This document shows positions 16,786 through 19,700 of a stretch of 64,000 nt of DNA, piece by piece. Position 1 is the stretch's first letter. Every line of letters begins with the position of its first letter. The stretch lies in NCBI RefSeq assembly GCF_053078305.1, contig NZ_CP166879.1. One strand, written 5' to 3'. Position numbers: made by a program.

Positions 16786-19700
16786 TAATGATGTGGCGTA
16801 TGCTGATAAGACGCGCCAGCGTCGCATCAGGCAACCGGCTCGGGCGTTGGATGTCGGATGCGGCGTAACCGCCTTATCCAACCTATGGGGTGGAGCACTT
16901 CACAGCGGTGTAGGCCTGATAAGACGCGTCAGCGTCGCATCAGGCAACCGGCTCGGACGTTGGATGTCGGATGCGGCGTAACCGCCTTATCCGACCTACG
17001 GGGTGGAGCACTTCACAGCGGTGTAGGCCTGGTAAGACGCGTCAGCGTCGCATCAGGCAACCGGCTCGGGCGTTAGATGTCGGATGCGGCGTGACCGCCT
17101 TATCCGACCTACGGGGTGACGCACTTCACAGCAGTTTAGCGAACTACCGCGTTGTCAATTTTCTCTTCCGCCTTCCAGACGCGGTACTTCACATCTACAT
17201 TGTCTGGCGTATACACCACGATCGGCAGCTTGCTGTTGTAACGCAGCATTCCAGCATCGCCCAGATACGCGGTGACAAATTTCTTCTCTTTCTTGCCATC
17301 CGGGCAGGCCATCATCGTGGAAACCGGCGAGCTAACTTTATCAAAGACATAATAATCATAGCCCCAGCCTTCCAGCGTTTTGCTTTCCAGCTTCCCGCCG
17401 AGACGATGCAAATTGCAATCGACTTCCAGCGTCTGACCGATAAACAGTTCTACTTTCAGGGTAGATTCATCTTCTTGCGGGGTTAACTGAATCACCTGAC
17501 GCTTCATGCCTTTTTCAGCTTGTGGATAAGGCGCGATTTTTTCCAGTGGTTGGACGCTCTCTGCCGCCCAGGCGGAAGTGGTGGCGAAAGCGGCAAACAA
17601 TACTGCAGGTAGAATGGTCTTCATTTTTTGCTTTCCTTCTTCATTTATAGGTTTGCACCGATGATGTCGCTGAAGGTTAACATATTCATCAGATTTATTA
17701 ATTTGCTTTATGAATAACTTAAAGAATATTCAGACAATTTTACCTGCTCTTTTAGTGTTAAATTCTGATGAGAGAGCAAACCAGCAGAAATATCTCTGGT
17801 GAATTAATCGCTATATAAATATATTTATAACCATTTGAAATGTGAGCAAAAGCCCGTTTTTGCCACGCTTCCCGCCACTCTTTTGATCCTGCTACAGGTT
17901 TTACCTCGATCGGGGTATGCATCTTTGACACATCCTTTAATATCTTAGCGGCTATAAAAATGGCTTATTAATTATGCGGTTTATTTGGTCGCTCTCAATT
18001 TTCAGAGCGCGTTAATGATGGAAGGTCAATGTGAAGATTGATGCATCCCGTCGGGGCATACTCACTGGTCGCTGGCGCAAAGCCAGTAACGGTATCCGTC
18101 CGCCCTGGTCCGGTGATGAATCTCATTTTCTGACCCATTGCACCCGCTGCGACGCCTGTATTAATGCTTGTGAAAACAACATTCTGCAACGCGGCGCGGG
18201 CGGCTATCCGAGCGTTAATTTCAAAAATAACGAGTGCAGCTTCTGTTACGCCTGCGCGCAGGCTTGCCCCGAATCGCTATTTTCTCCGCGCCACACCAGG
18301 GCCTGGGATTTGCAGTTCACCATTGGGGACGCGTGCCTGGCGTATCAGTCAGTTGAATGCCGCCGCTGTCAGGATAGCTGTGAGCCAATGGCAATTATCT
18401 TTCGCCCGACGCTCTCCGGGATCTACCAGCCGCAACTTAATAGCCAACTTTGCAACGGATGTGGAGCATGTGCAGCCAGCTGTCCGGTATCAGCCATAAC
18501 TGCGGAGTATCTCCATGCACACTAACTGGCAAGTTTGCAGCCTGGTCGTGCAGGCCAAAAGCGAACGAATTTCAGACATCAGCACCCAACTGAACGCCTT
18601 TCCCGGCTGTGAAGTTGCTGTCAGCGACGCGCCGAGCGGTCAGTTGATTGTGGTGGTGGAAGCAGAAGACAGCGAAACGCTGATCCAAACCATTGAGTCA
18701 GTACGCAACGTAGAGGGCGTGCTGGCTGTGTCGCTGGTTTATCACCAGCAGGAAGAGCAAGGTGAGGAAACACCATGAAACTCAGTCGTCGTAGCTTTAT
18801 GAAAGCTAACGCCGTTGCGGCCGCTGCGGCGGCTGCCGGTCTCAGCGTGCCGGGCGTTGCCCGAGCCGTTGTTGGTCAGCAGGAAGCCATTAAATGGGAT
18901 AAAGCGCCGTGCCGTTTCTGCGGTACTGGTTGCGGCGTTCTGGTCGGAACGCAGCAGGGGCGTGTGGTGGCCTGTCAGGGCGACCCGGACGCACCGGTTA
19001 ACCGTGGCCTGAACTGCATTAAGGGCTATTTCCTGCCCAAGATCATGTACGGTAAAGACCGTTTGACGCAGCCGCTGCTGCGTATGAAAAACGGTAAATA
19101 TGACAAAGAAGGCGAATTTACCCCAATCACCTGGGATCAAGCCTTTGATGTGATGGAAGAGAAATTCAAAACCGCCCTGAAAGAAAAAGGGCCGGAATCG
19201 ATCGGTATGTTCGGTTCTGGTCAGTGGACTATCTGGGAAGGTTATGCCGCGTCCAAGCTGTTTAAAGCGGGCTTCCGTTCGAACAACATCGACCCGAACG
19301 CGCGTCACTGTATGGCGTCGGCAGTAGTTGGCTTTATGCGTACCTTTGGTATGGATGAGCCGATGGGCTGCTATGACGACATCGAGCAGGCTGACGCGTT
19401 TGTGCTGTGGGGCGCAAACATGGCGGAGATGCACCCGATCCTCTGGTCACGCATCACTAACCGTCGTCTCTCTAACCAGGACGTCACCGTGGCGGTGCTT
19501 TCAACCTACCAGCATCGTAGCTTCGAGCTGGCGGATAACGGCATCATCTTTACGCCGCAATCTGACCTGGTGATCCTGAACTACATCGCCAACTATATCA
19601 TTCAAAACAATGCGATAAATCAGGACTTCTTTAGCAAACACGTTAATCTGCGCAAAGGGGCGACGGACATCGGCTACGGTTTACGTCCGACCCATCCGCT

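Follow-up and report, generated by a model that had tools for sequence, protein, structure and literature searches.

Bacterial interspersed mosaic elements of the BIME-2 class are built from REP palindromes of the y and z2 types in alternation. The system closest to the locus described here is the BIME-2 between eco and mqo of Escherichia coli K-12, which is listed in Table DS3 of Sutormin 2019 as 'BIMEs2 2308874-2309528, 654 bp, eco>-<mqo'. The same table gives the numbers of cleavage sites in this array (ciprofloxacin Topo-Seq (Cfx), 11; RifCfx, 7; Micro, 2; Oxo, 5), and the K-12 Topo-Seq sites in the array persist under rifampicin (Sutormin 2019). The K-12 element is bound and cleaved by DNA gyrase in vivo, with six cuts for six units according to the table's remark 'Espeli, Boccard 1997: 6 cuts'. 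A second relative is REP325, the yjdM-yjdN BIME-2 of K-12 from which naRNA4 is known, for which secondary structure rather than sequence is reported to matter in HU-mediated condensation (Qian et al. 2015). BIME-1 elements, by comparison, occur as single copies and contain y and z1 REPs, a conserved long L linker and an IHF site (Ton-Hoang 2012).

Here we analysed a stretch of 64,000 nucleotides (hereafter the window) from contig NZ_CP166879.1 of assembly GCF_053078305.1. The results make it very probable (about 0.93) that the repeats between mqo and eco in this window are a three-unit allele of the mqo-eco BIME-2 element of E. coli, with the roles at the DNA and RNA levels proposed below. The existence and identity of the array are confirmed; it is an ordinary element and was already known.

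Architecture of the intergenic array

The mqo gene (malate:quinone oxidoreductase; 15142-16788, + strand) corresponds to an ORF of 548 aa ending in a TAA stop codon at 16786-16788, and the eco gene (ecotin; 17136-17624, - strand) to an ORF of 162 aa with its stop codon at 17136-17138 (+ strand coordinates). Both assignments agree with the mqo and eco annotations in matching E. coli records, and the two genes are convergent, as the sequence-only reading had stated. The gap between them is 347 bp long and is filled by three units of 113 bp arranged head-to-tail (16797-17135 in the REP-based register), the array lying wholly outside genes between the two convergent stop codons.

Tandem Repeats Finder (TRF) reported a single array at 16803-17139 with a period of 113, 3.0 copies, 94% matches, 0% indels and a score of 597. 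The gapless repeat finder gave three copies of 113 nt at a spacing of exactly 113 nt, with 100, 96 and 89% identity to the reference copy, and pairwise comparison of the units in the REP-based register gave 103, 98 and 106 identical positions of 113. When the intergenic stretch was compared with itself at a lag of 113, the base identity was 0.90, against a mean of 0.26 and a best value of 0.385 at other lags. The 113-bp periodicity cannot be due to chance, and the claim of three tandem copies filling the gap, for which a periodicity check had been suggested, is borne out. The description of the repeat as a 113-bp palindromic unit needs amendment: the 113-bp repeat is real, but the unit is not a single palindrome, being composed of two different, opposed REP hairpins, each imperfect and about 30 nt long, and two linkers. 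Each unit contains an inverted y-type REP of 36 nt, a head-to-head linker of 20 nt, a z2-type REP of 34 nt and a tail-to-tail linker of 23 nt.

The boundaries of the units were set from TRF, the gapless repeat finder and the REP-based register. Unit 1 (16797-16909) comprises the inverted y REP with a degenerate tail (16797-16832), the head-to-head linker (16833-16852), the z2-type REP with the tail CTAT (16853-16886) and the tail-to-tail linker (16887-16909). In unit 2 (16910-17022) the corresponding parts lie at 16910-16945, 16946-16965, 16966-16999 and 17000-17022, and in unit 3 (17023-17135) at 17023-17058, 17059-17078, 17079-17112 and 17113-17135, the last of these being the terminal linker that adjoins the eco stop codon. 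On the + strand the GTAG tail lies to the left in the y REPs and the CTAC tail to the right in the z REPs. Units 2 and 3 have these tails intact, whereas those of unit 1 are degenerate, its y tail being GTATGC instead of GTAGGCC; unit 1 also has a C/A mismatch in the z stem.

Both REP types match published sequences, the y REP being one base off the published GCCTGATGCGACGCTGGCGCGTCTTATCAGGCCTACG and the z REP three bases off the published TGCCGGATGCGGCGTAAACGCCTTATCCGGCCTAC. The REP tail motif CGYCTTATCMGRCCTAC was found in five of the six REPs of the array and at one further site in the window (37249), where 0.04 occurrences would be expected in the whole window. In all six stems two positions form an internal bulge (xx for y REPs, :x for z REPs), and two internal stem mismatches are a trait of E. 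coli REPs (Ton-Hoang 2012, Fig. 1 legend). On each strand, hairpin energies lay between -13 and -21 kcal/mol; for the whole region the fold z-scores were -3.6 (+ strand) and -4.2 (- strand), with centroid structures made up mainly of REP hairpins. A 751-bp query that included the array had matches at a median of 11 positions in each E. coli genome. The palindromes thus correspond to the definition of REPs in their extragenic position, consensus match, internal stem mismatches and dispersed copies.

Three overlapping ORFs on the + strand (16778-16981, 16858-17076 and 16971-17486; 67, 72 and 171 aa) run through the array and share a repeated peptide motif, which could be taken to mean that the repeats encode real genes with a repeated peptide. 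This is extremely improbable and was rejected. Since 113 cannot be divided by 3, the reading frame changes from each unit to the next and the ORFs come to overlap; the third also runs antisense through eco. A Pfam search of the three ORFs gave no significant match (E-values of 0.086 and 0.12 at best, well short of the cut-offs), none of the 12 RefSeq records inspected has a CDS annotated in the mqo-eco gap, and the ORFs come and go with the number of units across strains. They had been called spurious from the outset, and we agree that these mechanical ORFs are the repeat read in shifted frames rather than genes.

Class of the element and relation to naRNA4

The alternating y/z2 orientation, short linker and tandem units fit the BIME-2 definition of Ton-Hoang 2012, as does the fact that the copy number at this one locus varies by strain (three here, one to seven elsewhere). 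The array shares with BIME-1 the extragenic position and the two inversely oriented REPs, but it consists of tandem units with a short linker, and a search of the array for the IHF consensus found none. The head-to-head linker, at 20 nt and lacking the IHF consensus, is hence not L, although the linkers were assigned from their length and position and not from the named S, s, l and r motifs of BIME-2. A BIME-1 with an IHF site was therefore rejected. Two further kinds of repeat were weighed together with it, namely a replication risk sequence (RRS/TRIP1) and a CRISPR array, and the chance that any of the three applies is negligible. Two units of the array add up to 226 bp, which is superficially near the 222 bp of RRS/TRIP1. 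The RRS/TRIP1 repeats, about 220 bp long, are likewise GC-rich, structured and intergenic, and they lie in the same half of the chromosome. However, RRS/TRIP1 repeats are located near dusC and lysO, are defined by G-quadruplexes, differ in sequence and are not built from REPs, whereas the present array has a 113-bp period at the mqo-eco locus, and the RRS paper makes no mention of mqo. A CRISPR array would likewise present regularly spaced palindromic repeats, but here the units are contiguous with no unique spacers between them, and it is the entire 113-bp period that recurs, with 89-96% identity. In addition, naRNA4 was the only Rfam family matched.

The comparison with K-12 was close. The two elements share the locus, the convergent genes and the 113-bp unit with its y REP, linkers and z2 REP, and they differ by few substitutions. 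In MG1655 the array has six units and extends over 655 bp when its first y REP and its last z REP are taken as the limits, and a 28-bp palindrome follows the mqo stop codon, whereas the window has three units and the palindrome is absent.

All three units passed the gathering score (59.5 bits) of the Rfam model RF02564 (naRNA4, a Y-linker-Z2 module) on the - strand: unit 1 at 16801-16883 with 60.5 bits, only narrowly above the threshold, unit 2 at 16913-16996 with 75.3 bits and unit 3 at 17026-17109 with 68.0 bits. These matches support the REP/BIME reading, and they also raise a different view of the main function of the same element, in which the array would chiefly be a cluster of naRNA4-like small-RNA genes whose eco-sense Y-linker-Z2 RNAs would bind HU and bridge cruciform DNA, a function that has been proposed for REP325. 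The architecture of REP325, with six Y-linker-Z2 repeats, is alike: both elements are made of tandem Y-linker-Z2 modules whose hairpins align without gaps, including the z REP of the window with the Z2 hairpin of the Rfam model. We nevertheless regard this function as unlikely. RF02564 is effectively a model of the BIME-2 unit, so that any BIME-2 should match it; REP325 lies at another locus, its inter-module spacer has a different sequence, and the head-to-head linker of the model is 13 nt, 7 nt shorter than the 20 nt found here. HU binding and the nucleoid phenotype are known for REP325 alone, the latter having been reported for it specifically, and 63% of E. coli genomes retain a single unit at this locus, which speaks against an RNA role that depends critically on dose.

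Variation among strains and loss of a palindrome

The sequence-only reading had held that copy number varies between strains and that the site is prone to recombination, and comparison among E. coli genomes supports both statements. Arrays of 1, 2, 3, 4, 5, 6 and 7 units were read directly in different genomes, and the junction between two units was found in 1985 of 5426 complete E. coli genomes, about 37% of which therefore have at least two units. Among 59 evenly sampled genomes, the length of the spacer corresponded to one unit in 37, two in 1, three in 4, five in 4, six in 11 and seven in 2, these counts having been checked by reading the sequences. The differences in unit number between strains are exact multiples of 113 bp; for example, NEB 5-alpha has five units and MG1655 six. 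Such changes would arise when the 113-bp direct repeats recombine unequally in register or slip during replication, and the REP-associated transposase TnpA(REP) may assist. Within K-12, unit 2 is identical to unit 4 and unit 5 nearly identical to unit 6, and strain F138 carries units 1, 2 and 6 of K-12. The site is plastic in other ways too, a 28-bp palindrome having been deleted in the window and IS621 inserted in one strain. None of the complete E. coli genomes was more than 98.5% identical to the first 25 kb of the window, so that its source strain is not among them. Outside E. coli, scanning 100,044 species-representative genomes for the exact pattern gave a single match, in Escherichia sp. 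E1V33 (three units, same locus); the absence from other species is weak evidence because the scan requires an exact match and returned no E. coli record among its matches.

The eco CDS of NEB 5-alpha and D3 is annotated as 510 nt. An extension of eco into the array in these two strains was considered and rejected, since the C-termini are identical and it is the annotated start that differs; the C-terminus of eco is identical in four strains.

One new point, which the sequence-only reading had missed, emerged at the left edge of the array, and it is a small strain-specific curiosity. Comparison with MG1655, TB06051, SCU-124 and F138 located a deletion junction at 16789-16798. Other strains read TGATGTG-CCACATCCGGCATGGTATGCCGGATGTG-GCG at this place, a perfect palindrome with 14-bp arms, whereas the window reads TGATGTGGCG, with 28 bp gone; the deleted block is flanked by direct repeats of the 6-bp GATGTG. 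The palindrome occurs once per genome and was found in exact form in 3169 of the 5426 genomes, and the idea that it is a dispersed repeat was rejected on account of its single copy. The deletion junction was present in only two of the 5426 genomes, RMDEC465 and CFSAN018748, which are of unrelated backgrounds.

It might be argued that the three-unit count or the missing palindrome is an artefact of assembly or sequencing, given that assemblers can collapse or expand tandem repeats, that polymerases can skip perfect hairpins and that the deletion is so rare among the other genomes. Such an artefact is improbable, because the complete genome of TB06051 has a three-unit array identical base for base to that of the window, and because the deletion ends in a 6-bp direct repeat around a perfect palindrome, which is a classic substrate for slipped-strand deletion.

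A more far-reaching interpretation is that the recurrent exact loss in three unrelated backgrounds (the window, RMDEC465 and CFSAN018748) reflects not random slippage but a specific mechanism, for instance processing of the hairpin or cleavage of the TnpA(REP) type at the BIME edge, and that it retunes mqo expression. More generally, the gyrase load between the two convergent genes could depend on how many units are present (1 to 7 or more). The retuning would follow from the replacement of a perfect hairpin 6-7 nt from the mqo stop codon, as in the other strains, by a REP hairpin, here the first stable hairpin after mqo, starting 14 nt past it. We consider this interpretation as a whole improbable.

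An exact copy of the natural target of IS621, a bridge-RNA recombinase element, is present at 16910-16920 (- strand) within the y REP tail of unit 2; the sequence is ATCAGGCCTAC, and it is the only one in the window (one match; 0.01 expected); the target sequence was taken from Durrant et al. 2024 (PMC11208160). In strain 2017-02-2CC, IS621 is inserted at the equivalent position in a y REP of the mqo-eco array. The tails of the y REPs may serve as landing sites for IS621.

Proposed roles and significance

For gyrase cleavage, RNA 3' ends and any effect on the expression of mqo or eco, the proposals made here extrapolate from findings on K-12 and other BIMEs. At the DNA level, the three y REPs would act as strong gyrase sites independent of transcription, and they would be placed exactly where the positive supercoils of convergent mqo and eco transcription collide. 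At the RNA level, REP hairpins would be present on both the mqo and the eco transcripts, where they may block 3'-exonucleases, attenuate read-through and set the 3' ends. A search for intrinsic terminators found none in the mqo-eco gap, the sole consensus match being inside mqo, and intrinsic terminators in the gap were therefore rejected for both genes. As reported by RepRanger (PMC12306157), which cites Liang 2015 for this point, REPs less than 16 nt from a stop codon lower the translation of the upstream gene; the first stable hairpin after mqo, which begins 14 nt past the stop codon, falls within this range and could have such an effect on mqo.

The finding has little importance other than for a correct annotation, in which the three ORFs should be omitted as genes and the region labelled BIME-2/REP, with the naRNA4 matches read accordingly. 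The array is a useful strain marker, with 1 to 7 or more units, a number that differs even between the K-12 derivatives MG1655 and NEB 5-alpha, and it is a predictable hotspot of misassembly as well as a natural landing site for IS621. By homology with K-12, it would also constitute a strong gyrase site between two convergent genes.

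Identity and anatomy of the mqo–eco array

Tandem Repeats Finder returned one array at 16803-17139 with a period of 113, 3.0 copies, 94% matches, no indels and a score of 597, and a gapless repeat finder returned three 113-nt copies spaced by exactly 113 nt. The array lies between the stop codons of two convergent genes, mqo (15142..16788, + strand) on its 5′ flank and eco (17136..17624, − strand) on the other, with a stop-to-stop gap of 347 bp. Base identity at lag 113 in this intergenic stretch was 0.90, whereas the remaining lags between 20 and 199 averaged 0.26 and never exceeded 0.385. 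The three near-identical tandem units of about 113 bp claimed by the sequence-only reading are therefore present, and at the place it gave. The periodicity extends a few bases into the eco stop codon (17132-17139); at this boundary GCAGTTTAGCG aligned with GCGGTGTAGGC of the internal units, indicating that the eco stop codon occupies the place of the GTAG tail of a y-type REP (repetitive extragenic palindrome).

With the register anchored at the REP tails, units 1, 2 and 3 occupy 16797-16909, 16910-17022 and 17023-17135, respectively. Each contains a 36-nt y-type REP in inverted orientation (GTAG-GCCTGATAAGACGC-GTCA-GCGTCGCATCAGGC), joined by a head-to-head linker of 20 nt (AACCGGCTCGGRCGTTRGAT) to a 34-nt z-type REP (GTCGGATGCGGCG-TAAC-CGCCTTATCCGAC-CTAC), and a tail-to-tail linker of 23 nt (GGGGTGGAGCACTTCACAGCGGT). 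Thus the unit repeat stands, but the description of a single palindromic unit does not, as each unit holds two different palindromes in opposite orientation. All REP stems of the array carry two internal mismatches, and paired internal stem mismatches are a feature of E. coli REPs (Ton-Hoang 2012). Degeneration is greatest in unit 1, where the tail is GTATGC instead of GTAGGCC and the z stem has a C/A mismatch. Single REP hairpins had folding energies between −13 and −21 kcal/mol, whichever strand was folded. The whole region was more stable than shuffled sequences, with z-scores of −3.6 and −4.2 for the two strands, and REP hairpins made up most of the centroid structures.

The REP tail motif matched five of the six array REPs and one further site in the window (37249), with 0.04 matches expected by chance. 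That site, an isolated REP-like tail (CGCCTTATCTGGCCTGC, 37249-37265, + strand, two mismatches), is the sole match outside the array in the 64 kb. The y and z REPs of the array differ by one and three bases, respectively, from REP sequences printed in Durrant et al. 2024. The Rfam search of the mqo–eco gap matched no family other than naRNA4 (RF02564), which was found on the minus strand in each of the three units, at 75.3, 68.0 and 60.5 bits, all above the gathering score of 59.5. naRNA4 corresponds to the Y-linker-Z2 module of REP325, a six-unit BIME-2 (BIME, bacterial interspersed mosaic element) (Qian 2015); both hairpins of this model aligned with the window units without gaps, and the window linker has a 7-nt insertion. 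Given that all three units match naRNA4, an eco-sense RNA from the array might conceivably be bound by HU in a naRNA4-like role; however, such a match is expected of any BIME-2 unit, and the majority of strains have a single unit at this locus. Elsewhere in the window, the MicF antisense sRNA (RF00033; 8720-8813, − strand, 118.7 bits) was found upstream of ompC, where it would be expected in this neighbourhood, and a tRNA gene (33868-33941, − strand, 54.9 bits) and an L25 ribosomal-protein leader (RF03131; 37657-37682, − strand, 46.9 bits) scored over their Rfam gathering thresholds.

A BIME-2 is defined by y and z2 REPs in inverse orientation with a short linker, in multiple tandem copies, and its copy number at one locus differs among strains (Ton-Hoang 2012). 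The array has the y/z2 inverse arrangement, tandem repetition and strain-variable copies of this class, together with a head-to-head linker that is short by length (20 nt), the linkers having been classed by length and position. No IHF consensus was found in the array, and assignment to BIME-1 was therefore rejected. Taken together, these results confirm the proposed REP/BIME feature: the array is the known eco-mqo BIME-2, and hence not a new element, here in a three-unit allele beside which 28 bp of a palindrome are deleted, a rare state.

Three mechanical ORFs on the + strand cross the array (16778..16981, 16858..17076 and 16971..17486, the last running on antisense through eco). As 113 equals 3 × 37 + 2, the frame shifts with each unit, so that the three ORFs overlap. 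They had no significant Pfam match, and the mqo–eco gap is free of annotated CDSs in all 12 RefSeq records inspected; they were rejected as genes, in agreement with their earlier description as spurious.

Copy number among strains

A query made of the flanks only, with no array sequence, matched 5421 genomes, from which 60 were sampled at even ranking steps. The flanks were joined in 59 of these, and spacer length gave 1 unit in 37 genomes, 2 in 1, 3 in 4, 5 in 4, 6 in 11 and 7 in 2. Direct sequence reading, used to check these counts, showed 1 unit in SCU-124, 2 in D3, 3 in TB06051 and F138, 4 in RMDEC465, 5 in NEB 5-alpha, 6 in MG1655 and 7 in L6-21, so that the predicted variation between strains holds, from 1 to 7 units in the E. 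coli genomes read. Of 5426 genomes, 1985 (36.6%) contain the 39-nt unit-unit junction; the number of matches per genome had a median of 4 and reached 11 at most. MG1655-type K-12 strains had 4 matches, as expected from five junctions with one variant, suggesting a tail-to-tail linker specific to the mqo–eco locus.

Array lengths always differed between strains by exact multiples of 113 bp. Among the six units of the K-12 array (u1 to u6), u2 equals u4 and u5 is nearly identical to u6, and the F138 units correspond to u1, u2 and u6; these substitution patterns reflect gain or loss of whole units. Exact 113-bp steps combined with such patterns are the signature of unequal recombination or slippage, and we infer from them that the changes probably arose by in-register unequal recombination or direct-repeat slippage. 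TnpA(REP) has been proposed to recombine BIMEs (Ton-Hoang 2012). NEB 5-alpha and MG1655 are both K-12 but have 5 and 6 units, one of the two near-identical last units being gone, which represents either an array change on a laboratory time scale or one wrong assembly. At the same locus, Escherichia sp. E1V33, which represents a separate species, carries the palindrome and three units, implying that the multi-unit state is older than the diversification of E. coli; single-unit alleles are plausibly collapses of multi-unit arrays.

Palindrome deletion and IS621 insertion

In ten of the other genomes in which the spacer was read, the mqo stop codon precedes a palindrome whose arms are 14 bp long (GCCACATCCGGCAT-ggt-ATGCCGGATGTGGC). 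It is perfect in most of them; a few have a loop change (GGTTTG in SCU-124) or a 2-nt insertion (an extra GG in the right arm, ATGCCGGGGATGTGGC, making the palindrome imperfect in L6-21 and D3). In the window (16789-16798), 28 bp of the palindrome are absent, with endpoints within a GATGTG direct repeat, a point that the sequence-only reading missed. The palindrome occurs once per genome and is exact in 3169 of 5426 genomes, and among 5426 complete E. coli genomes the deletion junction was shared by two, RMDEC465 with 4 units and CFSAN018748 with 1, and by no other. The window array matches all three units of TB06051 exactly, although TB06051 has the palindrome. The flanks of the window depart from TB06051 at 5 of 1389 positions, and from the two junction carriers at 50 and 38. 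As the shared deletion stands on unrelated backgrounds and with different unit numbers, the loss has either arisen at least three times or is a sequencing artefact that recurs at a perfect hairpin.

The mqo–eco stretch is 99.7-99.9% identical to TB06051, and no complete E. coli genome exceeded 98.5% identity over 1-25000, a region that may be mosaic. Coverage of at least 80% of these first 25 kb was limited to 13 of 5426 complete E. coli genomes, indicating that the insert with a 1347-aa ORF (1124-5167, + strand) is uncommon. This ORF adjoins rcsD, has a small ORF upstream (259-804, + strand) and is annotated as an S6-family peptidase in matching genomes, in which a YadA-C-terminal-domain gene is annotated at the start of the aligned stretch.

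As a result of the deletion, the first stable REP stem in the window starts at 16803, 14 nt past the mqo stop codon. In work by Liang 2015, quoted in PMC12306157, REPs less than 16 nt from a stop codon were reported to reduce translation of the gene upstream. In palindrome-bearing strains the mqo stop codon already has a perfect hairpin 6-7 nt away. By analogy, an effect of REP proximity on mqo translation is conceivable.

IS621 is a bridge-RNA recombinase element of the IS110 family. In 2017-02-2CC (NZ_AP027764.1), the 60th sampled genome, it lies within the fourth y REP of the mqo–eco array (4233-6000 of the retrieved stretch), inserted at GGTGT-AG | AG-GCCTGATAAG with the AG core (CT on the opposite strand) at both ends. 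The natural target of IS621 is ATCAGGCCTAC, with a CT core, and the majority of its insertions are within REPs (Durrant 2024). A single perfect copy of this target is present in the window, in the y REP of unit 2 (16910-16920, − strand). Whole-unit changes, palindrome deletion and IS621 insertion together support the view of the site as recombination-prone.

Gyrase cleavage of the K-12 ortholog and a possible role at convergent 3′ ends

The K-12 ortholog is listed in Table DS3 as 'BIMEs2 2308874-2309528, 654 bp, eco>-<mqo', with 11 gyrase sites for ciprofloxacin, 7 for rifampicin plus ciprofloxacin, 2 for microcin B17 and 5 for oxolinic acid (Sutormin et al. 2019). The MG1655 gap is 714 bp with six units, and its first y REP to last z REP span 655 bp. 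Gyrase favours y over z2 REPs, and the table entry remarks 'Espeli, Boccard 1997: 6 cuts' (via Sutormin et al. 2019); six cuts for six K-12 y REPs are consistent with this preference. BIME-2 gyrase signals go up, not down, with rifampicin (Sutormin et al. 2019). Gyrase cleavage of the K-12 ortholog array has been shown by others to be transcription-independent.

The window array lies between two convergent stop codons, and no intrinsic-terminator-like site was found in the gap. Work by Higgins, by Newbury et al. and by Espeli et al. in 2001 reportedly provides the REP/BIME basis for a barrier and attenuator role. By analogy, the three-unit allele would place REP hairpins at the 3′ ends of the mqo and eco mRNAs, where they may act as exonuclease barriers and read-through attenuators, and would provide three gyrase sites where the positive supercoils of mqo and eco meet.
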